A stretch of DNA of 63,350 bases, taken from positions 55,452 through 118,801 of the forward strand of contig CAZDHX010000001.1 of assembly GCA_964505425.1 (NCBI GenBank). The letters run 5' to 3'. Shown piece by piece: positions 37,195 to 61,286 of the stretch. Both the position numbers and the translations under genes were made by a program. The DNA is from an uncultured Dehalococcoidales bacterium (lineage in GTDB: Bacteria; Chloroflexota; Dehalococcoidia; Dehalococcoidales; BS750m-G39). How positions within the stretch are numbered: position 1 is the first letter of the stretch; every line of letters begins with the position of its first letter. Under the pieces are notes generated by a model that saw only the letters and a list, made by a program, of their open reading frames with translations, was not told the DNA's origin and ran no database searches.

Positions 37195-37267
37195 GCTTTT
37201 TTCTACCTCACCCCCTCTTTACCCTAAAAAATCTGTGATTTTTCAGGGAACCCGAATTTAATATGGT

Positions 37268-37353
37268 AACCTCACCCCCTGTATCCCCCTCTCCTTCTCA
37301 AGGAGAGGGGGAATTTAATTAAAAGAGGGGCGTTAGCCCCTCTTAAACACCCC
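37268..37353 (+). repeat. REP/BIME-like two-hairpin element, full copy 2 (extra partial leader at about 37205-37250)
   Basis: AACCTCACCCCCTGTAT-CCCCCTCTCCTT-CTC-AAGGAGAGGGGG, spacer, AAGAGGGGC-GTTA-GCCCCTCTT-AAACACCCC. Confidence 0.9.
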
Positions 37354-37409
37354 AGTTAACATAAAAGGTTGTGGTATAATATAAAGAGCAAAGAAAGTTT
37401 GCAAGAAGT

Positions 37410-37796
37410 ATGAAGCTTAAAATCTATCTTCTATACTACGGCGGGTGGCTTCTGGTTTTATTGGGGGCACTATTGCTTTTGGGCTCTTTTGTTCTGCCAA
37501 TTTTGCACTTTTCGGGTGTAAGGTGGGAGTGGTTTGGTAATCCGTCACCGGGTTTTGTTTTTGCTATGTCTATTAGGATGTTTGTTTCGGGTGGCATAGC
37601 GGAGGGGTTAGGGGTGTGGTTGGTTCGGTTGGCGCACAAGAAGGCGTGGGAGGAACAGCTACCAAAAGAGACAAGAGAGATAGTAGAGCGCGAAGCTAAG
37701 GATTTTTGGCAAAAGGTTAAAGATAAAGAGGAGCACAAAATCGCACAAGACAAGGGCGACGAGGCACGACGCTGGTTTGACACTACTAAGAGATAA
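37410..37796 (+). CDS. Hypothetical membrane protein: two N-terminal helices and a charged C-terminal tail
   Basis: ORF with its own TGtGGTATAAT promoter; hydrophobic N-half; AT-richer than flanks. Confidence 0.7.
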   Translation: MKLKIYLLYYGGWLLVLLGALLLLGSFVLPILHFSGVRWEWFGNPSPGFVFAMSIRMFVSGGIAEGLGVWLVRLAHKKAWEEQLPKETREIVEREAKDFWQKVKDKEEHKIAQDKGDEARRWFDTTKR

Positions 37797-37812
37797 AGAA
37801 GGTGATTAAGGC

Positions 37813-38025
37813 GTGAAAAGAGGACGGCTTCTGTTTGAGTTCTATATCAGAGTTATCGCGTGGGTTGGTGTAGTTCTCTTTGGATTATCCAATGCTCTGC
37901 GATGGATACAAATCTCCCCCGCTGACACTGTTTGGACAGTTCTCGTATGGATATTTTTCTTTGCTATACTCATAACAGGGTTCTTTGATTTGCGGCGATT
38001 CGTTGATAGGATTAAGGCAAGCTGA
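37813..38025 (+). CDS. Small two-TM hypothetical protein
   Basis: GTG start after AAGGTG; two hydrophobic segments. Confidence 0.65.
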   Translation: MKRGRLLFEFYIRVIAWVGVVLFGLSNALRWIQISPADTVWTVLVWIFFFAILITGFFDLRRFVDRIKAS

Positions 38026-38034
38026 AAAATTCTA

Positions 38035-38083
38035 TTCCCCCTTCCCCTTGTCAAGGGGAAGGGGGATAAAGGGGGATAGGGTC
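38035..38083 (-). repeat. REP-like element, hairpin-A-only copy
   Basis: TTCCCCCTTCCCCTTG-T-CAAGGGGAAGGGGG-ATAAAGGGGGATAGGGT. Confidence 0.85.
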
Positions 38084-38111
38084 AATTAAGTAATGTAAGG
38101 GGAAAGAAGAA

Positions 38112-38249
38112 ATGCGTAAAAAGAGGAAGATAAATCCTGTACGGACGGATTACCAGAAAGGGTACGACAGAGGATACAAAGCAGGTAGAAAAGCCAAGAG
38201 TAGAATTTACACTCTATCGGGGCATCTTGGGAAACCACCGAAGGTTTAG
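38112..38249 (+). CDS. Possible 45-aa basic small protein MRKKRKINPVRTDYQKGYDRGYKAGRKAKSRIYTLSGHLGKPPKV
   Basis: ATG after AAGGGG; TAG at 38247-38249, abutting the pncC stop. Below the ORF-track cutoff. Confidence 0.45.
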   Translation: MRKKRKINPVRTDYQKGYDRGYKAGRKAKSRIYTLSGHLGKPPKV

Positions 38250-38250
38250 G

Positions 38251-38736
38251 TTATAAGCTCAAAAGGTATTCTTTCAGCCAGCCTAGGGCCGCCTCGGCGG
38301 CGCTTTTTTTATTCTGCTCCCGGTCTCCCTTGAAGTTGTATTTACGGGTGAGAGTTTTTGCCCCGTGCGCCAGCCCGACAAAGAACAGCCCCACCGGCTT
38401 CCCCGCTGCCGCCCCACCGGGCCCGGCGATGCCGGTATCAGCCAGGCAGATATCAACGCCCAGTATTTTTCTGCCACCCTGCGCCATCTCTTTGGCTACT
38501 TCAGGACTGACCGCACCGTATTGGTAGAGGGTCTCCTCTTTTACCCCCACCACCCGGACCTTGACCTCGTTGCTGTAGGCGGTTACCGAGCCTTTATAGT
38601 AGTCCGAGCTGCCGGGGACATTGGTGATGAGGTGTGAGACTAGCCCGCCGCTGGCGGACTCAACCACCCCCAGGGTTAACCCCTTCTTGAGGAGCAGGGC
38701 GCCGACCTCTTCCTCTACATTTACCTCCGGGCTCAT
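38251..38736 (-). CDS. pncC: CinA C-terminal domain / nicotinamide-nucleotide amidohydrolase
   Basis: VESASGG, PGSS.YY.G....YSNE.K, GAVS.EVA..MA.G, TGIAGPGG, KPVG. Confidence 0.9.
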   Translation of the reverse strand: MSPEVNVEEEVGALLLKKGLTLGVVESASGGLVSHLITNVPGSSDYYKGSVTAYSNEVKVRVVGVKEETLYQYGAVSPEVAKEMAQGGRKILGVDICLADTGIAGPGGAAAGKPVGLFFVGLAHGAKTLTRKYNFKGDREQNKKSAAEAALGWLKEYLLSL

Positions 38737-39869
38737 ATGAACCTCTCCATCAGGGAGTATATCGTCTCTTCGTCAACCTGCTTGCCGTTGCCGCTAAGCC
38801 TTTGCCTTGCCTGCTCCACGCTGTCATGCTTGAGGGAATTATCCAGGTCAGCCAGCCCCTCGTATATACCCAATCTTCGCCCGAGCTTGAAATTTTGCTG
38901 CTCTTCCGGCGATAGGGACTGGAATCTGGCGATGGTAGCCAGCATCTTCCCCTTGTCTTCGGGCAGTTTCCCCTCAATCTCCTGGAGCAAATTGGTAATA
39001 TGGTCGCTAACAAGGTTTGACTGGCAGTTGAGGTTTTCAATCAGTAGTTTCTCCTCTTCTATAATCTCCTCATCTGTTGCCCGAACGAAATTGCCGTTTT
39101 TGACCTCGTCGTATAAGGGCATGCCCGCCTTGACGGTCAGGGTCCTGATGCGGATAAAGTCCGGGTTTATCTCGTTTAATACCCTTGCCGTTTCGGTGGC
39201 ATGCTCCCGCCACATCTTCTTTCCCCCCAGCCCGAGGAGGACATATTCACATAGCGAGATGCCCGATTTCACTATGTTTTTGCCGCCTTTAATGTGCTCG
39301 GCGGCGGTAACCCCCTTGTCCATGTATTCGAGCAGGGGGTCATAGCCTGATTCCAGCCCGATGTGGAGTCGGGAAAGCCCGGCCTCATGGAGCTGTACTA
39401 GTTCCTCAAGTTTCTTTTTGGCGGCTGTCTTGGAGCGGCCGTAGCTGGTCACCCGGGTGATGGTGGGCAGGGTCTGCTTCAGGAATTTTATTACCTCAAC
39501 CAGCTCAGGAGTCCTCATAATCAGGGTATTGGCGTCCTGGAGGAAGGCGCTGGTGCCGCCGTTATAAAGCCAGAGGGCAACATTAAAGGAGGCTTCGTTT
39601 GGCGGGTTGTTGAGAATAGCCGCCGCCACCGCCTTCACCTTCTCCCCGTAGCCGGACTTCCACGAAGTCTCCTTCAGCCTGTCCTGTATTGCCTTGACGG
39701 CCAGTATATCCTGCTTTATTTCCTCCACTGGCCTCAGCTCAAATTTTTGCCCCTTGTAAACATGGCAGAACTTACACCGGTTCCAGGGGCAGTTCCTGGT
39801 TACTCTGAGGAGCAGGGAATAAGCCTCGCTTGGCGGTCTGATTGGTCCCAGTTCAAAGGAGTCAGTCAT
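38733..39869 (-). CDS. Radical SAM protein (IRPPSE family, C-x4-C-x2-C)
   Basis: IRPPSEA.SLLLRVTRNCPWNRCKFC, FLQDAN, IGLESG. Confidence 0.85.
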   Translation of the reverse strand: MTDSFELGPIRPPSEAYSLLLRVTRNCPWNRCKFCHVYKGQKFELRPVEEIKQDILAVKAIQDRLKETSWKSGYGEKVKAVAAAILNNPPNEASFNVALWLYNGGTSAFLQDANTLIMRTPELVEVIKFLKQTLPTITRVTSYGRSKTAAKKKLEELVQLHEAGLSRLHIGLESGYDPLLEYMDKGVTAAEHIKGGKNIVKSGISLCEYVLLGLGGKKMWREHATETARVLNEINPDFIRIRTLTVKAGMPLYDEVKNGNFVRATDEEIIEEEKLLIENLNCQSNLVSDHITNLLQEIEGKLPEDKGKMLATIARFQSLSPEEQQNFKLGRRLGIYEGLADLDNSLKHDSVEQARQRLSGNGKQVDEETIYSLMERFI

Positions 39870-39878
39870 TTTTCCTCT

Positions 39879-40541
39879 TTACAGGTAGCCGAGCACATAT
39901 TGCTTGATGAACTCAAAGTTGCGCTTTACCTTCTCCTCGCCAACGATAATATCCATATGTCCGGGAAGCAGGTACTCTATCTCCAGCTGGGATAACCTCT
40001 CTATGGACTGCTTGAGGGCGCTGGCACTGCCGCCGGGCAGGTCAACCCGCCCCGTATTCTGGTTGAAGATGACATCCCCGCAAATCAGGATTTTCTCACT
40101 CTGTGAGTAGAAGCAGACGCTGTCCGGGGAATGCCCCGGGGAGGGGATGAGCTCGAATTCCATTTCTCCGGTGTTGAGCTTGTTATTCTTAAATAGTTCA
40201 TCCGGGGTGAACTCCACGATGGGAGCGCTGAAGAATTTTGAAGTCTGGATAACACTCGCTTCCCAGGAAGCCTTTTGTACGGGGTGGATGATTATCTTGG
40301 CTCCGGAGATTTTCTTGAAGGCTTCATTCGACCAGCTGTGGTCGCCGTGGAGGTGGGTATTGGTGATAATATCTATCTCCTTGGGGTCAATGCCGTCCTG
40401 CTGCAGGTCTTGGAACAGAGCCGGCAGGAATTGGGTAAGACCGGGGTCAATGATGACGCTGGTCTTGTCCTTAATTACATAGGTATTGCAGTCCATCATT
40501 CCCTTTTCCGGGTAGAAGTATAGATTTTTCGTCAGCCTCAT
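39879..40541 (-). CDS. Metallo-beta-lactamase-fold hydrolase (glyoxalase II-like)
   Basis: THLHGDHS, SPGHSPDS, GDVIF, GRVDLPGG, LPGH. Confidence 0.9.
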   Translation of the reverse strand: MRLTKNLYFYPEKGMMDCNTYVIKDKTSVIIDPGLTQFLPALFQDLQQDGIDPKEIDIITNTHLHGDHSWSNEAFKKISGAKIIIHPVQKASWEASVIQTSKFFSAPIVEFTPDELFKNNKLNTGEMEFELIPSPGHSPDSVCFYSQSEKILICGDVIFNQNTGRVDLPGGSASALKQSIERLSQLEIEYLLPGHMDIIVGEEKVKRNFEFIKQYVLGYL

Positions 40542-40562
40542 GTTATTATTCCTTCTGTTATA

Positions 40563-40580
40563 TTGACTTGCACAAGTCAA
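40563..40580. promoter_or_regulatory. Perfect 8-2-8 palindrome between divergent genes, candidate operator
   Basis: TTGACTTG-CA-CAAGTCAA. Confidence 0.55.
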
Positions 40581-40643
40581 CTTTACATTATATAGTAACC
40601 GTGGGCTAAAATAAAATGCAATGGCTATAAAAGGAGGTTTTAC

Positions 40644-40856
40644 GTGAAGAGCATAGGTATGTTGGCTGGTATAATTGCCTTCCTTTGTATGATAATGGGT
40701 GTTCTCACCCTGGTGGGGGCGTTTCCTGAACTTGAGTCACTTCCTGAGGAGTTTACCTGGAACGTTTGGTTCTGGCTCTCCGCCCTGCTATTTTTAGCCA
40801 ATATTGCCTGTATCGCCGGTGGTGGTCGCCGGGGTGGCGGTGGTGAGGAGTTTTAG
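40644..40856 (+). CDS. Small two-TM membrane protein
   Basis: GTG after AAGGAGG; two hydrophobic helices. Confidence 0.75.
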   Translation: MKSIGMLAGIIAFLCMIMGVLTLVGAFPELESLPEEFTWNVWFWLSALLFLANIACIAGGGRRGGGGEEF

Positions 40857-40881
40857 CCGGCTTGATTAGGCAAGCGTAATT

Positions 40882-41163
40882 GTGTCTATTTCCGGAAGGG
40901 TGACAAGGATTTCACTGCATGTTCAGCCCGGTGCCTCCAGGAATGAGGTGCTGGGCTTTACCGGTGGTGTATTGAGGGTAAAGGTAGCGGCACCACCGGT
41001 TAGGGGTAAAGCCAATAAAGAACTGGTTGCTTTTCTCAGCCAGATATTGGGTGTGAGCCAGGGAGCTTTAACCATTATACATGGTCGTGCTTCCAGAAAT
41101 AAGGTCCTGGCTATTGATGGCTTGAGCGAGGAGCAAGTTGTGAAACGGCTCCTCCCCGGCTAA
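40882..41163 (+). CDS. DUF167/YggU family protein
   Basis: VQPGASRNEV, LRVKVAAPPV.GKAN.EL, I.HG..SRNK. Confidence 0.92.
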   Translation: MSISGRVTRISLHVQPGASRNEVLGFTGGVLRVKVAAPPVRGKANKELVAFLSQILGVSQGALTIIHGRASRNKVLAIDGLSEEQVVKRLLPG

Positions 41164-42017
41164 GCCCTATTCTTCTTACCCTTCTTTCGGCGCCAGTAGA
41201 TAATGCCGAGTACGGTTCCCCAGACGGGGATGAATATTATCAGCCAGATGACTAGAATGGCAAGCCACTGCCCGAAGGTAACAATCCCTCTGACTGCGGA
41301 CTTGAGTGCTTCCAGGGCACTCCAGCCGGCATGAACCAACGGTTTTTCTGAGGCCTCTGGCTTCAGGTAAACCGAAATCAGGCTCATTGATGCCGTTCGC
41401 TCCAGATATTGCATTTGCCCCTTGATTTGCTCTATCTCCTGACGCACGCGGGAGAGGCTGTCATAGATTTTGAGGATGTCCTCAACATCGGTGGCTTCTT
41501 CCAGGAGGGCGAGGTACTGTTTTTCCGTTGCCTCGGCGTTGTTGAGCCTTGCCTGGAGGTCGGTATACTCTTGGGTGACATCCTGGCTATTGGTGTTCTC
41601 CGATGTTACCCTTACTGCCAGCGCTCTGAGTTCGGCGAGCGCCTGGTCAAACTTTTCGTCGACCACCCGGATGGAAATCCACCCCCTCATCTCATCTTCC
41701 TCCCCCGAAATCTGTGATGATACCACATAGCCGTCAAACCTCGCCGCAAGCTGGGCGATATCATCACGGGCATTGATTACGTCTTTTACTATCAGCGACA
41801 TATCTCCGGCGCGGACTATCATCCGGTCTTCATAAGTCGCCGTTACAGTCGTAGTCGTATATTCCTCGTCCCCCTTCACCACCGTTGGCGGCACTGATGT
41901 GGGATATGGTGCTTCTTGTGGCATCATTGCCCCTTCCTCTGGGGATGGCGCCGCGGCACATGAGACCGCTCCCAGCAGTAGCGACACTAAAACAAGTCCA
42001 ATTATCAGCCTTTTCAT
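41160..42017 (-). CDS. DUF4349 family lipoprotein with a C-terminal TM anchor
   Basis: Lipobox AVSC, RMIVR.GDM, DVT.EY.DL.ARL, IEQIKGQ..YL, C-terminal TM and basic tail. Confidence 0.88.
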   Translation of the reverse strand: MKRLIIGLVLVSLLLGAVSCAAAPSPEEGAMMPQEAPYPTSVPPTVVKGDEEYTTTTVTATYEDRMIVRAGDMSLIVKDVINARDDIAQLAARFDGYVVSSQISGEEDEMRGWISIRVVDEKFDQALAELRALAVRVTSENTNSQDVTQEYTDLQARLNNAEATEKQYLALLEEATDVEDILKIYDSLSRVRQEIEQIKGQMQYLERTASMSLISVYLKPEASEKPLVHAGWSALEALKSAVRGIVTFGQWLAILVIWLIIFIPVWGTVLGIIYWRRKKGKKNRA

Positions 42018-42100
42018 AACAAAATCCTTCCTGTTAGCCGTAGTCTACTATACTATAACGCAGAGGGAATGAAAAGGTTAGGACGCTGAGAGGTCTCTGT

Positions 42101-43120
42101 CTAAGATAATGTATTAATAGGATTAAGCTCAGTCGCTTCATTTAATAAACCAGCGAAACGAAATGTATCAATTACAAGCGTTTGTGCCTCATCTTGACGG
42201 ATTTGTCTCTTTCCCTTTGACCCTTTATTATATATGGGGTTTACCAATGCTTTGGCTTCGTCAAGTAGAGCTTGCTTAGCAGGAGGCACTTTCTTAGAAT
42301 AAGCGTCTATGTAAGCAAGGAGCCTATTCTTCTCCTTATTCGCTGATACATCTAGCGGTTGCCCATTTTGTGTTACATAGGTTTGCTTAGGAACTTTCCA
42401 GAGTAGCGTACCTAGTTTGATAACTACATTTCGGCAAGTGAGAGCGCAAGCATTCCAGCTAGCTGGGCTACTGGAACTAAGGTTATCAACAGCTACTATC
42501 AGTTCACCCCCCACAGGGGTTTCAAGAGCATCAAGTTTGTCAGTTATCAATTTGTAATTTGGGCCCAATAGGTCTACCCTGTCCTTCTCTCTAGTTGCTT
42601 CAATCCAAATGCTACTTACATAGTCATAAATATAGGCTCTTAGTGTTATTAGGATAGACTTGATTCTACTTTGGAATATGTTTGTTTGAAGTATTAGATT
42701 GGTAATCTCTCGGCTGTCCAAAGCGCTAGTTGGAGGGGGTGGTAGCTGGTTTTCCATTTCATAGACGCTTAGTGTTACTAATTTATTCTTTACAGGTGTT
42801 CTTTCGCCCTGAGGTTCTTTCAGTAATTCGTTAATTACATCGTCAATATTTAGCTTTTTCACATCTTCCACGGCACACAATTTTGTGTACATTAGCCCAG
42901 CTTCCCTATATGCTGGGTCAGTAAAGGGTTTTCCTTGATAAGGTAAATTGCGCAAGCCGTGGGTCAATATATCTATCAGGGCGGCCATTGCCATGTCACC
43001 TCTCATATTCGCCAGCAGCCGCGCTTGACTGAGCACGCTACTGAGGGGTTCGGCGCCATTTAGTCGCTCTATTATCGCTTGCGCCACTGTGATTTTTCTG
43101 TCTAAATCGCGGCTAATCAT
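42101..43120 (-). CDS. Hypothetical protein with an AbiTii-like N-terminal domain
   Basis: IIERLNGAEPLSSVLSQARLLANMRGD...ALIDILTHG resembles the AbiTii pattern (LS.LL.KA..LA..LG......WI..EL.GY). AT-rich, with own extended -10. Confidence 0.5.
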   Translation of the reverse strand: MISRDLDRKITVAQAIIERLNGAEPLSSVLSQARLLANMRGDMAMAALIDILTHGLRNLPYQGKPFTDPAYREAGLMYTKLCAVEDVKKLNIDDVINELLKEPQGERTPVKNKLVTLSVYEMENQLPPPPTSALDSREITNLILQTNIFQSRIKSILITLRAYIYDYVSSIWIEATREKDRVDLLGPNYKLITDKLDALETPVGGELIVAVDNLSSSSPASWNACALTCRNVVIKLGTLLWKVPKQTYVTQNGQPLDVSANKEKNRLLAYIDAYSKKVPPAKQALLDEAKALVNPIYNKGSKGKRQIRQDEAQTLVIDTFRFAGLLNEATELNPINTLS

Positions 43121-43175
43121 TGTAAATCTATTTTATCACATCCCATTGATTGTAAATAGGATAAAAGATTGTCTC

Positions 43176-45566: not shown

Positions 45567-45578
45567 TATTCACCACCA

Positions 45579-46184: not shown

Positions 46185-46206
46185 AATATTATTATGGAGG
46201 TGAATC

Positions 46207-46783: not shown

Positions 46784-47716
46784 ATGCAATCGGGCACTGT
46801 TTTGGCTACCTCCATAACATCGCTCATTGGTTTCCTCCTCAATAGCACCATTCTGGCTCTTGTCCTCTCGCGGGGAAGAAAACTTTATCATTACCTTTTC
46901 AGCGGCTTTCTTTTCATCTGTGCCCTGTGGGACCTCGGCATATTTCTGTCCATGATACGGAACACCCATGTCAACGAGCTGCCCATCTATGGCAAAATAA
47001 TCTGGTGGCCGTGCGTTTTCATGTTCGCTATTATCTTTCACTTCACCTGCTCCTACCTCAACCAGCCGAGGAAGAAGAGGATAATTTTTATCTGGGCCGC
47101 TTCTGCCCTTATCTTTATTCTCGGCGTCACCGGCTTGGGGGGAAAGATTGTAGGCGTTTACAACTATAGCTGGGGGAACATCTACCGGCCCGATTCCATG
47201 CTACTTATGGGTAACCTCGCGGGGTTACCACTTGCGTACTTCTTCGGCGTGTCGGCGCTTTACTTCCTGTTCCGTGCTTACAAGAGGGAACGCTCGTCAC
47301 TAAAAAAGCGCCACATTCTCTACATCCTTATCAGCTTTTTTATAGTCCATCTGGCCGTGTCGAAGGTGGCTATACTTTACGGTATTGACAATCGTTACTT
47401 GATGCCGACCTGCATGTTCTTAAACGACATTGCCGCCGCCTTGGTAGGCATCGCCATTATAAAGTATCGGCTCTTTGACATCACCGTTATCATAAAGAAG
47501 ACGACCATATATTCGGCGCTGGCGGCAATCGTTATCTTTGTCTTTAGTATGTCCGAGCACCTGCTGTCTACTTATGTGGGGCAGCTGCTGGGCGAGGAAT
47601 CAATGTATATTCACCTCATCTCAATAGCCGCTGTGGTTGGTGTTTTCATGCCGGTTAGGGGGAGGCTGGAGCGTGCTATCGAGCGCGCCTTTGCCCAAAA
47701 GAAGGTGAAGTTCTAG
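46784..47716 (+). CDS. HisKA_7TM-like multi-pass sensor domain with no output domain
   Basis: About 9-10 hydrophobic segments with KYRLFDI...TTIYS. The ORF ends right after the last helix; no kinase or cyclase domain. Confidence 0.6.
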   Translation: MQSGTVLATSITSLIGFLLNSTILALVLSRGRKLYHYLFSGFLFICALWDLGIFLSMIRNTHVNELPIYGKIIWWPCVFMFAIIFHFTCSYLNQPRKKRIIFIWAASALIFILGVTGLGGKIVGVYNYSWGNIYRPDSMLLMGNLAGLPLAYFFGVSALYFLFRAYKRERSSLKKRHILYILISFFIVHLAVSKVAILYGIDNRYLMPTCMFLNDIAAALVGIAIIKYRLFDITVIIKKTTIYSALAAIVIFVFSMSEHLLSTYVGQLLGEESMYIHLISIAAVVGVFMPVRGRLERAIERAFAQKKVKF

Positions 47717-48814: not shown

Positions 48815-48817
48815 ACT

Positions 48818-52504: not shown

Positions 52505-52509
52505 TCGGC

Positions 52510-53145: not shown

Positions 53146-53416
53146 CACTCTGCTCAAGTTTTAGCACTGAGCCTCGGCCGGTTTGTAGTCTGCCAGCGAT
53201 TGTTTCCGGGGCAAGGGAGGTCTGAATAATGTGCCCGTCATCGGTAATGATAACCGCTTTGGTCTTTCTGCCATTGGTCATGTCAATGAGTAATCCCTTG
53301 TTTTTCCCTTCCTGGACAGTGCGTTTGGTCGGCGCTGAATTTGGTGAAGCGATGGCAATAACTCTATTTATGGCTACGAAATTATTAAATCCAACGTGAA
53401 CCAATTCGGTGACCAT
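53120..53416 (-). CDS. remA: RemA/DUF370 family regulator
   Basis: VHVGFNN, SAPTKR, IDMTNGRKTKAVI..DDGHI..SL.PETI..RL; upstream of gmk. Confidence 0.9.
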   Translation of the reverse strand: MVTELVHVGFNNFVAINRVIAIASPNSAPTKRTVQEGKNKGLLIDMTNGRKTKAVIITDDGHIIQTSLAPETIAGRLQTGRGSVLKLEQSDEKVEPEK

Positions 53417-53505
53417 GGTTATCACCTCTTCCCTCTTTAATCGCGGCGCTTATTATCATATACCTTTAATAATAATTAGGCAATGGGTTTTGAGCGGAAA
53501 ATGAC

Positions 53506-53534
53506 TTGAATTATAAAACATTTGGTGATATCCT
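53506..53534 (+). promoter_or_regulatory. Promoter of nfnAB
   Basis: TTGAAT-17-TATCCT with an extended TGn; leaves a structured leader of about 108 nt. Confidence 0.6.
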
Positions 53535-53648
53535 GTTTTTACGGATTGAGGACACGTCTTTACCGAAGAAGGGGCTGTCTCCGGGAGGGTTAACCTTGGG
53601 ATAGCCTTTCTGTTATCTGACGGATGAGACAGAGTGAGGGGGCAGTAG

Positions 53649-54485
53649 TTGTATAAGGTATTGTTAAGGGAGGACCTGGTACCGACTATCCATCTCTTTA
53701 AGGTGGCGGCACCGGCGGTAGCCAGGAAGGCTCAAGCGGGGCAGTTTGTCGTTATCAGGATTGACGAAAAGGGCGAGCGTATTCCCCTGACCATTGCTGA
53801 TTGGGACCGGGACGAGGGCACTGTTACCATCGTCTTTATGGAGGTGGGGACAACCACCGCCAGATTGGCCTTGCTGAAAGCCGGGGACGCTATCGCTGAC
53901 TTTGTTGGCCCGCTTGGCGTGCCGACACATGTTGAGAAATTCGGCACCGTAGTCTGTGCCGCGGGGGGGGTTGGGGTGGCTCCCATATCACCTGTGGCGC
54001 GGGAATTAAAAAATGCCGGCAATAAAATTATCTCAATTCTGGGGGCGCGGAGCAAAGACCTCATTTTCTGGGAGGACCACCTGCGCCGTTTCAGCGACCA
54101 GCTGATAGTTACCACCGACGATGGCACTTACGGTCGTAAGGGGGTGGTGACGGAACCGCTAAAAGAATTACTTGAGTCCGATGAGAAGATTGACCGGGTC
54201 GTTGCCATTGGACCGGGCGTCATGATGAAGTTCTGTTGTAAGACTACTGAACCCTTCGGCGTCAAGACCATCGTCAGCCTGAACTCAATAATGGTTGACG
54301 GCACGGGGATGTGCGGCTGCTGTCGGGTGGAGGTTGGCGGCGCGACCAAGTTTGCCTGTGTTGATGGGCCTGAGTTTGACGGGCATCGGGTGGACTGGGA
54401 CTTGCTCCTTGCCCGCCAGCGCATCTACCTTGACGAGGAGAAGCGTTCTTTTGAGCGCTGGCAGTGCCAGTGTGGCGCTGGTTAG
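53649..54485 (+). CDS. nfnA: Electron-bifurcating transhydrogenase small subunit
   Basis: GQFVVIR...GERIPLT, GPLG, GGVG.AP, TDDG..G, MVDGTGMCGCCR...CVDGPEF ([2Fe-2S] with Asp ligand). TTG start. Confidence 0.9.
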   Translation: MYKVLLREDLVPTIHLFKVAAPAVARKAQAGQFVVIRIDEKGERIPLTIADWDRDEGTVTIVFMEVGTTTARLALLKAGDAIADFVGPLGVPTHVEKFGTVVCAAGGVGVAPISPVARELKNAGNKIISILGARSKDLIFWEDHLRRFSDQLIVTTDDGTYGRKGVVTEPLKELLESDEKIDRVVAIGPGVMMKFCCKTTEPFGVKTIVSLNSIMVDGTGMCGCCRVEVGGATKFACVDGPEFDGHRVDWDLLLARQRIYLDEEKRSFERWQCQCGAG

Positions 54486-54501
54486 TTAGGAGGACTGGTA
54501 T

Positions 54502-55899
54502 ATGGCGAAGCTGAATCTGAACCGGCTGCCAATGCCGAGGCAGGACCCAAAAGCTCGGGGTAAGAATTTTAATGAGGTCGCCCTGGGCTATAATCTCAAG
54601 CAGGCTCAGGAAGAGGCAAGCCGCTGTATTCAGTGTAAGAAGCGTAATTGCGTTGAGGGCTGCCCGGTGGGGGTGGATATCCCTGATTTTATCCAGGCGC
54701 TCCGCGACGGCAATATGCCGGAGGCGGTGAGAATACTGAAGAGCAAGAACGCCCTGCCCGGCATCTGCGGGCGGGTCTGCCCCCAGGAGACCCAGTGCGA
54801 GGCTACCTGCTCGCTGGCAAAGAAGGGGGCGCCGATTGCCATCGGTCGGCTGGAGAGGTTTGTCGCCGACTGGGAGCGGGCTAATATGCCGAAAGAAAGC
54901 TCGCCCCCGCCAAAGCCAACACCCAGTGGTAAGCGGGTGGCTATTGTCGGCTCGGGACCGGCGGGACTAACCGCCGCCGCTGATTTGGCTAAGCTCGGGC
55001 ATGACGTCACCATCTTTGAGGCGTTGCATGTCGCCGGCGGGGTCTTGATGTATGGCATCCCGGAGTTCAGGTTGCCTAAGGAAATCGTCCAGAACGAGGT
55101 TGACTACGTGGCTTCCCTGGGGGTGAAGATTGAGCTGGACTCGGTGGTCGGCAAGCTCCTTACCATAGACGAGCTGCTCGGTAACGGCTATCAGGCGGTA
55201 TTTTTGGGCACCGGCGCCGGACTGCCCATGTTTTTGGGCGTCCCCGGTGAGAACCTCAACGGCATCTATTCGGCGAATGAATTTCTGACCCGCGTCAATC
55301 TGATGAAGGCGTATCTATTCCCTGAGTACGATACCCCGGTAAAGCTGGGTAAGAAGGTGGCGGTCATTGGCGGCGGCAATGTCGCCATGGACTCCGCCCG
55401 CTGCGCCCTCAGGCTCGGCGCCGACGAGGTCTATATCATCTATCGTCGTTCCGAGGTGGAGATGCCCGCCCGCCGAGAAGAAGTTGAGAATGCCCAGGAG
55501 GAGGGCATCCAGTTCAAGCTGTTGACCACCCCCAAGAGATTTCTGGGCGATGAGAAGAACTGGGTGGTCGGTGCCGAATGCTACCAGATGGAGCTCGGCG
55601 AGCCTGACGATAGCGGGCGGCGTCGTCCGGTGGTCAAAGAGGGGAGCGAATTTGTTATTGACGTTGACGAGGTGATAGTTGCTTTGGGCACCACCCCCAA
55701 CCCCCTCATCGCCTCAACCACCCCCGGTCTGGAGACGGGCAAGCGGGGGACGGTGGTGGCTTCTGAAGCGACGGGTAAGACGGTTAAGGACAGGGTGTGG
55801 GCAGGTGGCGATATCGTTACCGGCGCAGCGACGGTGATTTCTGCCATGGGGGCGGGCAAGCTCGCCGCCGCCGATATTGATAGGTTTTTGAGGGGGTAG
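54502..55899 (+). CDS. nfnB: Electron-bifurcating transhydrogenase large subunit (GltD-like)
   Basis: CIQCKKRNCVEGCP, CGRVCPQE.QC...C, GSGPAG, YGIPEFRL, GGGNVAMD, YRR, GGDIVTG. No gltB nearby. Confidence 0.88.
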   Translation: MAKLNLNRLPMPRQDPKARGKNFNEVALGYNLKQAQEEASRCIQCKKRNCVEGCPVGVDIPDFIQALRDGNMPEAVRILKSKNALPGICGRVCPQETQCEATCSLAKKGAPIAIGRLERFVADWERANMPKESSPPPKPTPSGKRVAIVGSGPAGLTAAADLAKLGHDVTIFEALHVAGGVLMYGIPEFRLPKEIVQNEVDYVASLGVKIELDSVVGKLLTIDELLGNGYQAVFLGTGAGLPMFLGVPGENLNGIYSANEFLTRVNLMKAYLFPEYDTPVKLGKKVAVIGGGNVAMDSARCALRLGADEVYIIYRRSEVEMPARREEVENAQEEGIQFKLLTTPKRFLGDEKNWVVGAECYQMELGEPDDSGRRRPVVKEGSEFVIDVDEVIVALGTTPNPLIASTTPGLETGKRGTVVASEATGKTVKDRVWAGGDIVTGAATVISAMGAGKLAAADIDRFLRG

Positions 55900-55921
55900 G
55901 TTGAGGGGTGTCTAATGCCCC

Positions 55922-56527
55922 TTACTCTCTTTTCATTAAGAGCGCTATACTTTTGGCTGTGAAATTCTCGGGTGGCGGAAACGGGAAAGCAGCTTCATTT
56001 TTCCGACTTAGCACTTGTGCCGGCGTCTTTGCATGGCGCGCCACTCTCAGCAGTATTCGAGATTTTTTAGTGTACTCATTGGTTGCTACAGTGATGTCAA
56101 TGGTGAATGTTTGAGTTGTGTGTGGGTCTAAACTATAGATGACGAAAAAGATACATTTGTTACCTATGCTGTCAACCCCGTCCATTCTAATAAAATCATA
56201 GCTTATAGATATGTTTGATATTTTTGCCGATAAGTTTGCTGATGAGAATGGTTTCCCATCTTTAGGATTAATTTTGATATCACCGGTTCTTAAATCACAG
56301 TTCTCCCCGTAGAGTTTTACCCAGATATCAAACAGTACTTCTTCAGTCCTATTTTGAACATGAAAAGTAGTCTTTATATTCCATGGTTGCGCTTTCAGAC
56401 TAATCCGCTTAGGAGAGATTATTACAGGGGCTCGAAATTTCTTACAGACGAAAGGAATAGCTACAACAAGTATTGTAACTATTATACCGACTACACCAAT
56501 TATTATGCCAATAGTAAGGGCAGTCAA
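55922..56527 (-). CDS. AT-rich hypothetical protein with an N-terminal TM anchor and a beta-rich soluble domain
   Basis: TTG after AAGGAG; TGgTAGAAT promoter; GIIIGVVGIIVTILVVAIPF helix. Confidence 0.7.
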   Translation of the reverse strand: MTALTIGIIIGVVGIIVTILVVAIPFVCKKFRAPVIISPKRISLKAQPWNIKTTFHVQNRTEEVLFDIWVKLYGENCDLRTGDIKINPKDGKPFSSANLSAKISNISISYDFIRMDGVDSIGNKCIFFVIYSLDPHTTQTFTIDITVATNEYTKKSRILLRVARHAKTPAQVLSRKNEAAFPFPPPENFTAKSIALLMKRE

Positions 56528-56586
56528 AATCCGATACTCCTTATTCTTTCTATACTTATTCTACCACCAGTTTACTTATTAAGTAA

Positions 56587-56669
56587 GGGTATTTAAGAGG
56601 GGCTTTAGCCCCTCTTTTTAATTTTCTCCCCCTCTCCTTTGAAGGAGAGGGGGATTAAGGGGGAGAGGT
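56587..56669 (-). repeat. REP/BIME-like two-hairpin element, full copy
   Basis: Reverse complement ACCTCTCCCCCTTAAT-CCCCCTCTCCTTC-A-AAGGAGAGGGGG, spacer, AAGAGGGGC-TAAA-GCCCCTCTT-AAATACCC. Confidence 0.9.
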
Positions 56670-56715
56670 AGCTATTTCCCTTTGGGCGGGATTTTTAGTA
56701 GAATTAAAGCCGATT

Positions 56716-57606
56716 ATGGCTGAAGTTGAGCCGGTTACTGACGAAATCTACCGCTTGGGAGTGCAAATTCCCGGGGCAAACGCCGTCTTTGCCGTTTACT
56801 TTATCAAGGACGGCGACGGCGCCATCATAGAGCCGGGTCCGGCGGTGGTTGTCCCCGAAATCCAGGGGGCGGTGGTGGAGCTGGGGCTGTCCGAGCCGAC
56901 ATATATCATCCCCACCCATATCCATCTTGACCACGCCGGTGGGGTGGGGAGGCTGGCGGAGGTCTTCCCCGAAACAAAAATCGTGGTCAATCAGCGGGGG
57001 GTGAAGCATGTAATTGAGCCGTCGCGGCTGATTGAGAGCACCCGCATGGCTTTTGGCGATGACTTTGAGACCATCTACGGCCCCATTCTGCCCGTGCCCG
57101 AGTCGCGGCTCAAGGTGGTGGCGGATGGGGAGCAGCTGGCGGTGGGGGGGCGGGAGCTGGTCGTCATCTACACCCCCGGTCATGCCCCGCACCACATATC
57201 CGTCTTTGATACCAAAACGAGGGGGCTGTTTTGCGGGGAGGCGCTCGGTCTTATCTATAGCCCGGGCTATCCGCCGCTGCCGGCGGTAGCGCCGCCGAGC
57301 TTTGATATGGAGCTATACCTCAATGATATGGAACGGCTGAGGGCGCTGAAGCCCAAGCTTTTATTCTACTCTCACGGCAGTGTCGCCAGCGAGCCGGAGA
57401 AGCTGATTACCACTGCTATGGAGAACACCAGGCTGGTCGGCGATTTCATCCTGCGCGATTTGAAGGCGGGGGAGGGTGAGGAGGCAATAATCAGCCATGT
57501 CGGGGACTACCTCCGTGACCACCTCGGCGTTACTCTGGACGAGTATGAGCTGTGGAGCAACGTCAGCGGCTATATCCATTACTTCCGGAAAAAGGGTCTG
57601 GTATAG
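56716..57606 (+). CDS. Metallo-beta-lactamase-fold hydrolase (YtnP/YflN-like)
   Basis: THIHLDHAGG, TPGHAPHH, GEALG, YSHG. Confidence 0.9.
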   Translation: MAEVEPVTDEIYRLGVQIPGANAVFAVYFIKDGDGAIIEPGPAVVVPEIQGAVVELGLSEPTYIIPTHIHLDHAGGVGRLAEVFPETKIVVNQRGVKHVIEPSRLIESTRMAFGDDFETIYGPILPVPESRLKVVADGEQLAVGGRELVVIYTPGHAPHHISVFDTKTRGLFCGEALGLIYSPGYPPLPAVAPPSFDMELYLNDMERLRALKPKLLFYSHGSVASEPEKLITTAMENTRLVGDFILRDLKAGEGEEAIISHVGDYLRDHLGVTLDEYELWSNVSGYIHYFRKKGLV

Positions 57607-57691
57607 TTTTCCTCCCGCTCATTATGGTCAGTTCTTAAATATCCTTATAAAATCCCTTCTTTTTAGACGGAAATTCTAGTAGAATAATCTC

Positions 57692-60250
57692 GTGGCAAGT
57701 GAAGGCGTAACCCCCATCAGGCGGCAGTACCTCAGAATTAAGCGCCGCTATCCCGAGGCGATTGTCCTCTTTCGTCTCGGCGATTTCTACGAGACCTTTG
57801 ACGAGGATGCTCGTATTACCTCGCGGGAGTTGGAGATTGTCCTGACCTCAAGGGAGATGGGGAAGGGGCACCGCGTCCCGATGGCGGGCATCCCCTATCA
57901 TGCCCTTGATAACTACCTGGCAAAATTAATCAATCGCGGCTATAAGGTGGCTATCTGTGAGCAGCTCACCAGGCCCGGCGAGACCAAGGGCTTGGTCCAG
58001 CGCGAGGTCATCCGGCTGGTAACACCGGGCACGGTGGTTGAGCCGAGTCTGCTTGATAGCAAGAGCAACAACTATCTGGTCAGCGTAGTTCCGGGTGGGG
58101 AGGAGGTGGGCATCGCCTACGTTGACATCACCACCAGCGAGTTTGCCACCACCCAGCTTCCCTTTCACCGCGCCATTCCCGAGCTGGAGCGGCTCAAGCC
58201 ATCTGAAATTATTGCCGGCAAGGGCGCCGATTTATCAGCAGTCAAGCTAACTGCCCCGGTAACCCGCCTTGAAGACTACTGGTTTGAGCCTGAAATCGCT
58301 GAGAAGACTCTGCTTGACCACTTCGGCGTGGCTACCCTTGACGGCTATGGTTGTGCCCACTTGCCTCTGGCAACGCAAGCCGCCGGGGCTATCATTCACT
58401 ATATTCAGGAGACGCAGAAGGGGGTTCTGGGGCAGCTAGGACGTCTTTCTACTTACTCCACTGACCTGTTTATGGCGCTGGACGAACAGACCCAGAGAAA
58501 CCTTGAGCTTTTCTCTGGCAGCCGCTCGGGGAGTGTTGGCGGCTCGCTGCTGGGGGTGATTGACCTGACCCGGACGGCGATGGGGGGTAGATTACTGAAG
58601 CGGTGGCTTGGTCAGCCCCTGCTTGATATCGCCGAGCTGAACAAGAGACAGGACGCCATCGGCTGGTTTTATCACAATACCCTCGCCCGCGGTCAGACCG
58701 TATCACTGCTCGGGGAGGTGGCTGACCCGGAGCGCTTGATTAACCGCATAAAGGGTGGTATTGCCGCCCCCCGCGAGTTGACCAGTCTTCGCCGCAGCCT
58801 GGAGGTAATACCGAAGCTCAGGCAGGTGCTTGAGCCAGCAGACTGGCTCAAAGACGAGCTGAAGCCCTGCCCTGAGGTGGTGGATTTGATTTCCCGGGCA
58901 CTTGTTGAATCACCGGGAAGCCTGGAGGAGGGTGGGGTGGTGAGGCAGGGTTTCTCCGAGGAACTGGACAAGCTCCGTGAATCGTCCAAGAATGCCAAGC
59001 AGTACCTGGCTGACCTTGAGCGCCAGGAGAGGGAGAAAACCGGCATCAAGTCGCTGAAGGTGGGCTTTAACAAGGTCTTCGGCTACTATATTGAGGTCTC
59101 CAAGCCAAATCTGCCCCAGGTGCCCCAGGACTATATCCGGAAGCAGACGCTGGTCAACGGCGAGCGCTTCTTTACCCCGGAGCTGAAGGAGTATGAGTCG
59201 TTAATTCTAAACGCCGAGGGCAGGATTGCCGAGCTTGAGGGGCAAATATTCCGTCAGGTGTGTAGCCAGGTGGGGGCGGAAAGCGAGCGCATCTCGGCTT
59301 CAAGCCTCGCCTTAGCCAATATAGATGTCCTCTCCAGTCTGGCTGAGGTCGCCGTGCGCTATAACTATGTCCGACCCAAATTGACCACGGACAGCGAGAT
59401 AGTTATCTCTGACGGGCGCCACCCGGTGGTGGAGAGGAGCCTGCCTGAAGGCAGCTTTGTCCCCAACGATGTTTATCTCTCAAACGGTGACGCCCAGCTT
59501 ATCGTCCTTACCGGCCCCAACATGTCGGGCAAGTCAACCTACTTGAGGCAGGTAGCCTTGATTGTGCTCCTGGCTCAGGTAGGCAGCTTTGTCCCGGCGG
59601 AATCGGTAACTATGGGCATCGTTGACCGCATCTTCACCCGCATCGGCGCTCGTGAAGACCTCCCCGCCGGTCAGTCAACCTTTATGGTGGAGATGGTGGA
59701 GACGGCCAATATCCTGAATAACGCCACCCCCCGCTCACTGATTATTCTCGATGAAATCGGACGTGGAACCAGCACCTACGACGGACTTTCCATTGCCCGC
59801 GCCGTCGCTGAGTATATTCATAGTTATCCCCGGCTGGGCGCCAAGACCCTCTTTGCCACCCATTACCACGAATTAGTTGGGCTGGCCGCCTTTTTGTCCC
59901 GCGTCAAGAACTTTAATGTTGCCGTGAGCGAGGAGGGAGGGGAGGTTACCTTTTTATATAAGATTGTCCCCGGCGGCGTTGACAAGAGCTACGGCATTCA
60001 TGTCGCCAAGCTCGCCGGTCTGCCCAAGTCTGTGGTGCACCGCGCCCGCGAGGTTCTGGAGGAACTGGAGGGGGACAGCCGCACCGCCGCCCCCCAGAAA
60101 CGGCGAAAAGAGATAGCCCAGCAGTTGCCATTATTGGGGCAAAAATCGCCGCTTTTTGATGAACTTGAGAAGCTGGACATTGATTCTCTAACCCCGCTTG
60201 AAGCCATCACCAAGCTCTACGAGCTGCAGAAGAAGGCGAGGGAGGGGTGA
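57692..60250 (+). CDS. mutS: DNA mismatch repair protein MutS
   Basis: RLGDFYETF, MAGIP, GPNMSGKSTY, DRIFTRIG, STFMVEM, DEIGRGTST, FATHYHEL. Confidence 0.98.
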   Translation: MASEGVTPIRRQYLRIKRRYPEAIVLFRLGDFYETFDEDARITSRELEIVLTSREMGKGHRVPMAGIPYHALDNYLAKLINRGYKVAICEQLTRPGETKGLVQREVIRLVTPGTVVEPSLLDSKSNNYLVSVVPGGEEVGIAYVDITTSEFATTQLPFHRAIPELERLKPSEIIAGKGADLSAVKLTAPVTRLEDYWFEPEIAEKTLLDHFGVATLDGYGCAHLPLATQAAGAIIHYIQETQKGVLGQLGRLSTYSTDLFMALDEQTQRNLELFSGSRSGSVGGSLLGVIDLTRTAMGGRLLKRWLGQPLLDIAELNKRQDAIGWFYHNTLARGQTVSLLGEVADPERLINRIKGGIAAPRELTSLRRSLEVIPKLRQVLEPADWLKDELKPCPEVVDLISRALVESPGSLEEGGVVRQGFSEELDKLRESSKNAKQYLADLERQEREKTGIKSLKVGFNKVFGYYIEVSKPNLPQVPQDYIRKQTLVNGERFFTPELKEYESLILNAEGRIAELEGQIFRQVCSQVGAESERISASSLALANIDVLSSLAEVAVRYNYVRPKLTTDSEIVISDGRHPVVERSLPEGSFVPNDVYLSNGDAQLIVLTGPNMSGKSTYLRQVALIVLLAQVGSFVPAESVTMGIVDRIFTRIGAREDLPAGQSTFMVEMVETANILNNATPRSLIILDEIGRGTSTYDGLSIARAVAEYIHSYPRLGAKTLFATHYHELVGLAAFLSRVKNFNVAVSEEGGEVTFLYKIVPGGVDKSYGIHVAKLAGLPKSVVHRAREVLEELEGDSRTAAPQKRRKEIAQQLPLLGQKSPLFDELEKLDIDSLTPLEAITKLYELQKKAREG

Positions 60251-61053
60251 GGGTGAATAGCTCTAATAGCTCCATTAGCCCTATTCCATTGTCAAGATAC
60301 ATTGGTAAATGTATATACTGCGGGTCTACTGATGACTTAACCGATGAACACATTGTGCCACGTGGTCTTGGTGGTCCTTGGCTATTGCTTGAGGCAAGTT
60401 GTAAAAAATGTGCCAAGGTTACCTCGGGTTTTGAACGGGGTGTACTGAGAAAATTCTTTATTCTGGTGCGTACGAAGTTGGGCTTACCGACCTATCACCC
60501 TAAAAATAGGCCAAAAACCTTTCCCTTCCTTGTCACAATAGGCGGGAAAGAAAAGGTCTTGGAAGTTCCAGTGTCTGATTGTCCCACCTTGTTCATGATG
60601 CCGTTGCTTGGGAAACCGGGTTATATTCGTAAAGATACTCAGGTTAAGGGCATGGTGGTGTCAGGGATGAGTTTACACGGAAAAGAAAGCGAACTTCGAG
60701 AATTTAAGGCTAAATACAATATTGAGAGCATATCTTATACTAGAGAGCTACGCACAAGTTTTGCGCGTGTTCTTGCCAAAATCGCGTATGGAATGGCTGT
60801 AGCTAAATATGGCCTTGACATGATTGAAGAAGCCTATGTGCTTCCATGTATACTGGACCCCAAAAATGATGTTGGTCAATGGGTTGGGTGCGAGGCCCCC
60901 CATGAGTCCCCTGCCCTTCTTCAGCGAGAACAATACTTTCATAGGATAGATATCCTTATAAATAAGAGCGAAGTAGGGGCCCGAGTAAGGCTATTTGCTA
61001 ATTACCAGACACCTGAATATCTGGTTATTGTAGGCCGACTAAAGGGGCACTAA
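60247..61053 (+). CDS. HNH-type (HNH_5-like) endonuclease-domain protein
   Basis: CIYCG...LTDEHIVP.GLGG...SCKKC. GTG overlaps the mutS TGA. AT-richer than mutS. Confidence 0.75.
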   Translation: MRVNSSNSSISPIPLSRYIGKCIYCGSTDDLTDEHIVPRGLGGPWLLLEASCKKCAKVTSGFERGVLRKFFILVRTKLGLPTYHPKNRPKTFPFLVTIGGKEKVLEVPVSDCPTLFMMPLLGKPGYIRKDTQVKGMVVSGMSLHGKESELREFKAKYNIESISYTRELRTSFARVLAKIAYGMAVAKYGLDMIEEAYVLPCILDPKNDVGQWVGCEAPHESPALLQREQYFHRIDILINKSEVGARVRLFANYQTPEYLVIVGRLKGH

Positions 61054-61146
61054 CCCCTCCCCCCACACCCGTGTTTTCTTTTTCCAAACCCACCCGCCCT
61101 CAAAGCCTTCACGGTTTATTCCTTCGTTTTATCCCCACCCCCCACA

Positions 61147-61237
61147 GGGGTTAAAGGGGCGTAAGCCCCCTTAAAAAACAAATTCCCCCTCTCCTTCACC
61201 AATTCCCAAAGGAGAGGGGGATAAAGGGGGTGAGGTT
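61147..61237 (-). repeat. REP/BIME-like two-hairpin element, full copy with a longer loop
   Basis: Reverse complement AACCTCACCCCCTTTAT-CCCCCTCTCCTT-(12 nt)-AAGGAGAGGGGG, spacer, AAGGGGGC-TTAC-GCCCCTTT-AACCCC. Confidence 0.88.
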
Positions 61238-61286
61238 ACAAATAATCTCGTTGCTATACATAAGCTAGTGTGCTATATTTTGGGTA

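Follow-up and report, generated by a model that had tools for sequence, protein, structure and literature searches.

The window analysed here is a 63,350-nt stretch of a contig from an uncultured Dehalococcoidales bacterium, in which copies of a two-hairpin repeat, hereafter the element, lie beside accessory genes set between housekeeping loci. Nearly all Dehalococcoidia remain uncultured and their genomes are small and streamlined, so that the ways in which accessory and defence genes enter and leave these genomes are poorly known. Among species-representative genomes, the nearest MutS proteins come from metagenome-assembled genomes at 75−78% identity, and one sediment run contains 96% of the words sampled from 5.9 kb of the window. 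For comparison we used about 20 related contigs; labels between L001 and L183 denote related loci or contigs.

A Pfam scan backs the gene calls for bifunctional mgsD, cinA, comEC, comEA, an nfnB-like gene, a metallo-beta-lactamase-fold (MBL) gene, mutS, an HNH_5 gene, argJ, and argB, and returned no family for the genes starting or listed at 37410, 37813, 42101, 46207, 46784, and 55922. The sole tRNA of the window is tRNA-Leu (5085−5169), and no tRNA duplication was found. No integrase, transposase, HUH/RAYT gene, or recombinase was found among the larger open reading frames (ORFs) of the window that lie outside ~11.6−16.2 kb and 47.7−54.5 kb or among the listed Pfam calls of the relatives' genes. 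This agrees with a first-pass annotation of the same DNA, which had reported comEA and comEC and no integrase, transposase, or tRNA duplication. An exact-sequence look-up gave no record for ArgJ or for the 128-amino-acid (aa) protein described below, and placed ArgB only on a 1-kb Logan contig.

Anatomy of the element

The element is modular and about 90 bases long. In forward order it consists of a G-rich tail (consensus GGGGTGTYTAAG), a first hairpin (hp2), an A/T spacer of 10−15 nt, a second hairpin (hp1), and a box (AAAGGGGGTGAGGTWR). More specifically, hp2 has a stem of 9 bp (AAGAGGGGC, a loop of 3−4 nt, GCCCCTCTT), while hp1 has 10−14 bp (TCCCCCTCTCCTT, loop, AAGGAGAGGGGGA) and is followed by ATAAAGGGGGTGAGGTWR. 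The hp1 loop ranges from 3 to 22 nt in length, and the box core GGGGGTGAGGT closes the element. A second subtype of hp1 and box, termed type II (CCCCCTTCCCC), is seen in copies E and F. The hp1 pattern matches the window six times and the hp2 pattern four times, against 0.00 matches expected by chance in either case.

All seven hairpin copies (A to G) reported in the first-pass annotation were found, though three of them are partial or cut. The full elements are A (118−204, plus strand; box, hp1, spacer, hp2, tail), B (37266−37354, plus strand), C (56587−56670, minus strand), and D (61147−61240, minus strand). An acetyl-CoA-synthetase-like gene (235−1677, minus strand) reads into the hp2 and T-run of copy A. 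The tail of B points toward a pair of ORFan genes, C has as its orthologue the element that precedes mutS in L081−L084 and L180−L183, and D, which has a long hp1 loop, has orthologues in L082 and L083. Copy E (38035−38085, minus strand) is a part-copy at the 3′ end of the ORFan pair, with a type II hp1 and box and without hp2. Copy F (63280−63350, minus strand), also of type II, is cut by the window end and is absent after argB in L081, L082, and L177. Copy G (46670−46695, plus strand) has only an hp2-type hairpin and a T-run. Between positions 300 and 37200 no copy was found, despite two variable segments there.

Related fragments occur as well. An orphan box without hairpins (CTACCTCACCCCCTCTTTACCC) lies at 37203−37224 (plus strand), and an hp2-like hairpin with a T-run (55902−55924, plus strand) directly follows the nfnB stop and overlaps the stop codon of the 55922 gene. 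At 32997−33020 (plus strand), between a 95-aa gene and proA, the sequence GGTGTAAGAGGGGGGTAGATAAAA is a possible collapsed element or empty site; L165 carries a full element there.

Among 47 copies from related loci, at least seven hp1 and at least six hp2 arm sequences occur, nearly all of them perfectly complementary. Judged by these compensatory changes, structure and not sequence is conserved in the stems. Each strand is predicted to fold into two independent hairpins, with −39 to −53 kcal/mol. Rfam gave no match in the window at the gathering threshold and, around copy C, only sub-threshold hairpin-like matches. We also found no paper on such a repeat in Dehalococcoidia, and the family is therefore undescribed.

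Distribution and mobility of the element

Searches of the related loci with nhmmer confine the element to a clade whose MutS is at least ~72% identical to that of the window, plus phage contigs. The positive loci are L001−L003, L046, L081−L087, L163−L166, and L180−L183, and about 140 more distant loci were searched without a match. The 63-kb window holds 6−7 copies and the related loci 47. In marsh and sediment metagenomes the depth of hp1 is 70−500 times that of the flanking genes, and Logan contigs terminate at the element. At about one copy per 10 kb, with none in 37 kb of the window, the element is far sparser than DNA uptake sequences (DUS/USS), which occur about once per kb, and such a role was set aside.

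Seven IMG/VR contigs carry the element, and one of them, L171, encodes a portal and a major head protein. Five of the IMG/VR contigs (L171−L175) have a similar ORF layout with 1−3 copies each, some exactly intercistronic, and the element in them may help to link phages to hosts of this Dehalococcoidales clade.

Element positions differ almost wholly between the window and relatives that are ~85% identical at the nucleotide level. Furthermore, cargo-free copies occur among the housekeeping genes of L087 and within the structural operons of phages. At proA, L165 has an insertion of the element only, where the window, L162, and L163 have a spacer of 14−24 nt with the ribosome-binding site (RBS). 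This insertion, the absence of F from relatives, and the differing positions mark the element as mobile in its own right.

The empty sites at the L165 proA copy, at window copy F, and at copy D (as seen in L081) are Shine-Dalgarno-like (SD-like) G-boxes that resemble both ends of the element. The left and right G-boxes of many type I copies resemble each other without being identical, while those of type II copies differ and do not fit this pattern, so that a strict target-site duplication is not established. The box-like remnants at 32997−33020, at the mutS end of L081, and at two places in L177 may be scars of element loss or SD-like empty target sites.

Single-gene cassettes in slots bordered by the element

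Between the mgsD and cinA stops, the window lineage carries an insertion of 1,056 bp (37195−38250) that contains, in order, the orphan box, copy B, two genes for membrane ORFans of 128 aa (37410−37796, plus strand) and 70 aa (37813−38025, plus strand), copy E, and a small ORF. Seven relatives with mgsD 80−88% identical in amino acids lack the insertion, and their mgsD and cinA stops are 7−40 nt apart. A homologue search with the 128-aa protein matched only itself; a homologue with 91% aa identity lies in the nfnB slot of L081. In L166, whose mgsD is 97% identical to that of the window, an orthologue of B is followed at its tail by a different gene, HicB-like, which brings an extra half-hp2 and a tail from another element subfamily. 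The cargo of the mgsD slot sits beyond the tail, on the cinA side, unlike that of the other three slots described here.

An extended −10 promoter motif, TGGTATAAT, read from the sequence at 37372−37380 (plus strand), precedes the ORFan pair. Copies B and C share one geometry, as had been noted before: the tail, a gap of ~18−20 nt, the extended −10 (TGGTATAAT at B, TGGTAGAAT at C), and then the gene. The accessory genes had also been described as AT-rich, which holds for the 55922 gene (GC 0.38) but only mildly for the ORFan pair (~0.46 vs 0.54).

Between E and cinA, a 45-aa ORF (38112−38249) with a good SD sequence encodes a highly basic product without known family. In L167 (1−300), argJ lies divergently beside mgsD, with the same argJ promoter sequence as the window has at 61250−61290; the breakpoint of this rearrangement is the intergenic region that holds element D in the window.

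The nfnB slot holds seven different cargos, which are placed against the tail of a conserved element and differ by lineage. The window has a 201-aa ORFan (55922−56527, minus strand), L081 homologues of the 128/70-aa pair, L082 an NYN-like gene, and L180−L183 an HNH_5 unit; genes of 184, 212, and 277 aa occupy the slot in L083, L046, and L002, respectively. In the mutS slot, the window carries an HNH_5 gene, L082 DUF4411 plus HTH-M78, and L083 a GNAT gene, followed in all three by D or its orthologue. The window cassette (60275−61099, plus strand) comprises the HNH_5 ORF, listed as 60247−61053, and its own hairpin and T-run at ~61040−61085. HNH_5 and D together are bounded by a 9-nt direct repeat, GGGGTGAGG, with its left copy at the mutS stop (60244−60252, plus strand) and its right copy in the box of D (61227−61235). 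L081 has neither cargo nor D after mutS, and its junction is one copy of this repeat. In L083, hp2 is broken off at its loop beside the GNAT cargo.

The mfd slot holds SLFN/AlbA_2 in L162, AbiV in L163, DUF3800 in L164, and DUF4238 in L165, and in the latter three the gene sits between the mfd stop and a conserved type II element. In the nfnB, mutS, and mfd slots, the cargo is packed from the stop codon of the conserved gene to the element tail. Four slots (mfd, mgsD, nfnB, and mutS) are thus documented with single genes that differ among relatives. The 55922, HNH, and MBL genes are missing or replaced at the corresponding positions in L081−L084 and L177−L181, and comparison with the related contigs identifies the genes next to the element as lineage-specific insertions, which bears out the accessory status assigned to them in the first-pass annotation. 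Each of the six window copies that could be compared falls within a variable segment or at its margin, and across the 12 kb compared between the window and L081 all four structural differences involve an element.

Some variable slots of relatives hold gene pairs that resemble toxin-antitoxin systems. The DUF4411 and HTH-M78 genes of L082 (3450−5124) form a toxin-antitoxin-like pair by Pfam, and in L002 a HicA/HicB-like pair, read from the sequence, occupies 1041−1468. Gene order also varies around mutS. In L177−L179, which belong to the same contigs as L163/L164, the order is nfnB-HNH-MBL-argJ and mutS is missing at the locus; the window has mutS between element D and element C, the latter upstream of the MBL gene.

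Promoter duplications and element-free segments

Two insertions show a junction signature distinct from the hairpin element, namely duplicated promoter segments. The MBL gene (56716−57606, plus strand), absent from L081−L084 and present in L117 and L177−L179, is flanked by two copies (~35 nt) of the mutS promoter region. One copy (56672−56704, plus strand) now drives the MBL gene, and the second lies at 57654−57691. The other case is the gene for a 134-aa membrane protein (46207−46611, plus strand), which has no Pfam match. Together with G, it is bracketed by two 46-nt copies of a sigma-70-type promoter (TGGACA, 17 nt, TATAAT) that are 87% identical (46139−46184 and 46711−46756, both plus strand). 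The second copy precedes the gene at 46784−47716, whose 310-aa product is not paralogous to that of 46207; its counterpart in L162 is a HisKA_7TM protein. Both genes are absent from L163−L165 and present in L162. Copy G is indeed present between these two genes, where the first-pass annotation had placed it, but it is only an hp2-type hairpin that looks like an ordinary terminator, presumably the intrinsic terminator of 46207.

Three variable segments of the window carry no element: 16385−18411, 21741−31549, and 42083−43187. The largest (9.8 kb) is found only in the window lineage, with 18−130 nt in its place in four relatives and no element at its borders. It encodes an isochorismatase, an asparagine synthase, an HhH-GPD glycosylase, a MacB/FtsX-ABC-HlyD efflux set, and a two-component system. 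The hypervariable acpP-mfd slot (16385−18411) contains in the window an HNH_3 gene (16417−17334) and a low-GC ORFan (17596−18396). With AbiV, DUF3800, DUF4238, or SLFN/AlbA_2 there in L162−L165, it has the appearance of a slot for defence genes. When the window cargo was scanned with PADLOC and PHROG, the only matches were to this HNH_3 gene, apart from a marginal PHROG match (E 0.004) for the low-GC ORFan. The third segment is the DUF4349-comEC slot. In L163 (13645−14197) and L164 (14450−15002), which correspond to 42083−47723 of the window, comEC is gone and comEA is kept in a shortened form; competence and DNA uptake are therefore not universal in the clade.

Relocation of cassettes between slots

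At least two cassettes occur in different slots. The ORFan pair of the window mgsD slot and its counterpart in the L081 nfnB slot are 87% identical over 531 bp, the element included. The HNH unit of the window mutS slot (60275−61099) shares 90% identity with the unit that follows nfnB in L177 and L180, and HNH units adjoin nfnB throughout L177−L183. In L180, this 90% compares with 77−81% for the flanks of the unit, in a slot other than that of the window. Since its identity exceeds that of the flanks in another slot, the comparison indicates relocation of the HNH unit between slots and, probably, its transfer.

Chloroflexota metagenomes contain 380 homologues of the HNH_5 gene, ~260 aa in length. 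Of the 120 that score best, roughly half have a longest contig of just ~1−2 kb, which suggests that the gene is commonly flanked by assembly-breaking repeats. No HNH_5 relatives were found in viral contigs.

Three cargos, at window B/E, in L087, and in L002, stand between two elements in inverted orientation whose tails point at the cargo. A composite transposon was considered for these pairs and rejected, as no flanking duplication was found and the outer flanks are unrelated. Likewise, the joint 55899→56598 in run X3 was rejected as an empty site, since relatives carry an hp2-type hairpin right after nfnB, as does the window (55902−55924).

Alignment of the mgsD-cinA, nfnB, and mutS loci across relatives, which the first-pass annotation had proposed as a check for constant breakpoints in the element, places cargo junctions at the element end, but the far junctions are equally constant. 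They lie at the stop codon of the conserved gene, as replacement between two conserved anchors predicts.

Signals for transcription and translation

In each half of the region, the hairpins of the element rank highest among the terminator-like sites. In copies C and G, hp2 with its T-run was called as such a site in the forward direction, and A and B are alike in sequence. In B, hp1 with a T-rich stretch was called on the forward strand, and in D and F hp1 with a T-run was called on the opposite strand. The D orthologue of L083 closes a minus-strand FAA-hydrolase/PK_C operon, which the window has lost.

In the phage contigs L171 and L175, the element exactly spans the gap from stop codon to ATG, with the box GGGGGTGA(A/G)GTAnAT immediately before the ATG. 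The L165 proA copy fills the stop-to-start gap too, and the panC start in L087 likewise follows the box. In L171, L175, and L165 proA, the ATG lies 5−8 nt beyond the box. Because terminator-like hairpins are combined with an exact filling of stop-to-start gaps and a box before the ATG, the most likely role of the element is transcript punctuation, in which it would serve as terminator, attenuator, or stabiliser with a built-in ribosome-binding box.

Interpretation and competing explanations

We favour, with a probability of roughly 0.55, the interpretation that the element is a punctuation repeat resembling repetitive extragenic palindromes (REP) and bacterial interspersed mosaic elements (BIME). 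The slots that it borders would be hot spots of the minimal mobile element (MME) type, in which cassettes turn over by recombination at conserved anchors. In the proposed course of events, hp2 with a U-run, or hp1 with a U-run on the other strand, would terminate or attenuate transcription and shield the 3′ end, while the box would offer a ready-made Shine-Dalgarno sequence to the downstream gene. The element would spread on its own, and phages of the same hosts carry it too. The adjoining AT-rich genes would be moron-like cassettes, each made up of a gene with its own promoter or none, plus a hairpin. Their turnover would most likely proceed by recombination with the conserved gene and the conserved element as anchors, as in MME replacement. 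Occasional illegitimate or short-homology events at G-boxes and palindromes could shift cassettes between slots. The repeat and its G-boxes may plausibly facilitate gain, loss, and relocation, either by offering short homology in portable form or by acting as fragile palindromes.

Several observations weigh against this interpretation. Half-hp2 duplications occur at cargo junctions in L166, L083, and L165, the 9-nt box repeat bounds HNH_5 and D, and in the compared slots the cargo lies on the tail side, with the L087 201-aa ORF and the window MBL gene as possible exceptions. These features fit element-centred recombination better than plain flanking homology. Moreover, termination, stabilisation, and RBS use are predictions from the sequence, copies B and C and the orthologues of C are presently not downstream of any co-directional gene, and the intercistronic phage copies have no U-run after hp2.

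One alternative is pure co-location, in which elements and accessory genes collect independently in the few intergenic spaces of a compact genome that tolerate insertions, for instance at operon ends, and the element would have no role when cassettes are gained or lost. Conserved intergenic gaps in the clade are mostly shorter than 30 nt, so that a 90-nt element or a new gene would persist at few places only. The three element-free variable segments and the turnover of element positions independently of cargo point the same way. This explanation is nonetheless unlikely, given that six of six comparable window copies lie in or at variable segments and four of four structural differences from L081 involve an element, and that element halves appear in junction scars and the 9-nt box repeat at the HNH_5/D indel.

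The first-pass annotation had suggested that the hairpins may act as recombination or landing sites for single-gene cassettes. Partial support for this view comes from the insertions, the constant slot border, the junctions at the tail end, the scars, and the relocations; the failure of the scan to find a recombinase and the cargo-free elements speak against it. In its explicit form, a dedicated, element-centred system would rely on an enzyme (tyrosine/Xer-like, HUH/RAYT-like, or HNH) encoded elsewhere that acts at hp2, the tail, or the G-box and, at copies of the element, inserts, excises, and swaps single-gene cassettes. Cargo within a few nucleotides of the tail in four slots and many lineages would be expected from it, as would the half-hp2 and foreign-subfamily tail that accompany the HicB-like cargo of L166, the hp2 cut at its loop in L083, and the 9-nt repeat around HNH_5 and D opposite the empty site of L081. 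The two cassettes found in different slots, the difference in cargo between the window and L166, whose mgsD is 97% identical, and the three cargos bracketed by inverted elements are also in line with it. Against it, no integrase, transposase, or HUH gene was found among the scanned larger ORFs of the window or the listed Pfam calls of the relatives, the stems are perfect, without attC-like cores or extrahelical bases, and there is no consistent target duplication. An hp1 loop of such variable length (3−22 nt) speaks against a core site in double-stranded form, variable slots exist without an element, and elements exist without cargo among housekeeping genes and in phage operons. We consider such a system quite unlikely, and it is not needed to explain the data. 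A version in which hosts and phages share a trans-acting enzyme that recognises the element, or the G-box with hp2, and moves moron-like single-gene cassettes (defence genes, toxin-antitoxin pairs, HNH genes, and ORFans) among the slots that the element borders, as a hairpin-guided system distinct from integrons, seems to us very unlikely.

The weakest explanation is fragility, in which the perfect palindromes, or G-boxes cut by the free-standing HNH enzymes of these slots, would give rise to double-strand breaks whose repair drives local deletion, insertion, and cassette exchange, with the HNH genes acting like homing endonuclease genes aimed at G-box-like gene ends. Two free-standing HNH genes do occupy variable slots (60247 after mutS, 16417 between acpP and mfd), the HNH_5 unit, more conserved than its flanks, lies directly after GAGGGGGTAG (nfnB) or GGGAGGGGTGA (mutS), and both the short contigs of its homologues and the four collapsed-element scars would be explained. 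Still, most cargos are not nucleases, PADLOC and PHROG gave the HNH_5 gene no support, and none of its relatives was found in viral contigs. We regard this explanation as highly improbable.

Whichever route operates, the element is a specific and abundant marker of hypervariable single-gene slots, common to the Dehalococcoidales clade and its phages. Because contigs break at it, it can guide the search for accessory and defence genes where metagenome assemblies are fragmented. It is also a candidate host-phage linkage signal, and with it one can test whether dispersed palindromic punctuation repeats actively promote cassette exchange. Should recombination be centred on the element, genes would here move by a new route; otherwise, the region is a well-documented case of REP-like repeats that co-localise with hot spots.

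Comparison with known systems

The first-pass annotation had compared the hairpins loosely with the attC sites of integrons. As in clusters of attC sites lacking integrases (CALIN), no integrase was found beside the hairpin repeats, and their neighbours are small genes, often of ORFan, toxin-antitoxin, or GNAT type. The likeness to attC does not hold, however. The stems are perfect, and the element has neither the R″/L″/L′/R′ architecture nor the conserved RYYYAAC/GTTRRRY cores, extrahelical bases, or a co-oriented tandem array. GTTAAG/GTTAAC follows the tail only in A and B, and box and tail are not complementary. Integron cassettes are promoterless and co-oriented, each with its site at the 3′ end; here the cargo occurs in both orientations and mostly has its own promoter, with the element upstream (B, C) or downstream (D, E).

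A phage moron consists of one gene, with a promoter and a terminator of its own, that has been added between conserved genes. The 37410/37813 pair and the 55922 and 46207 genes, each with a promoter-like site and a terminal hairpin, resemble morons, and the element is present in phage contigs. Unlike morons, these cassettes are located in a bacterial chromosome outside any prophage, and no homologues of the cargo were found in phages.

With Correia, ERIC, and miniature inverted-repeat transposable element (MITE) repeats, the element shares a length of ~100 nt, dispersal, transcription, the potential to supply expression signals, and the marking of polymorphic sites (Correia features from PMC2649163). 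It differs from MITE-like repeats in lacking terminal inverted repeats, as the tail GGGGTGTTTAAG and the box GGGGGTGAGGT are directly similar and not inverted.

The slots described here resemble the MMEs of Neisseria and integration hot spots that lack mobility genes (definition in PMC3787668) in that whole-gene cassettes vary between the same conserved flanks, no mobility genes were found in the scan, junctions lie at the ends of conserved blocks, and comEA and comEC are present in the window. MMEs are exchanged by transformation and homologous recombination in the flanks. In contrast to MMEs, one flank is a dispersed repeat and not a unique core gene, and competence is not conserved, comEC being deleted in L163 and L164. 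At least two cassettes also occupy differing slots, for which flanking homology alone is not a sufficient explanation.

The closest counterparts of the element itself are the REP/BIME repeats of Enterobacteria and Pseudomonas, including the REPINs mobilised by RAYT. Both are short, GC-rich, extragenic or intercistronic palindromes of high copy number and modular, mosaic build; both are transcribed with their neighbours and form clade subfamilies, and some REP/BIME copies terminate or attenuate transcription or guard mRNA 3′ ends. REP/BIME repeats carry a conserved GTAG or CGTC tetranucleotide at the palindrome foot (PMC3733652). No such tag is found at the stem foot of the element: GTAG occurs only within GGTGAGGTAG, ~15 nt from hp1, in some type I copies, and is absent altogether from B, D, and type II copies. 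BIMEs consist of inverted copies of one imperfect REP, and no such arrangement was found here, the element having two different perfect hairpins in fixed order with an A/T spacer. The loose REPIN likeness suggested earlier holds for the high-copy extragenic palindromes, not for the tag or for an inverted pair of one REP. A terminal, fixed SD-like box and the occurrence in phage genomes further set the element apart. Overall, the element belongs to a known kind, the dispersed palindromic intergenic repeats, within which its two distinct hairpins, built-in SD box, sharing with phages, and border position at slots between which cassettes have moved are unusual.

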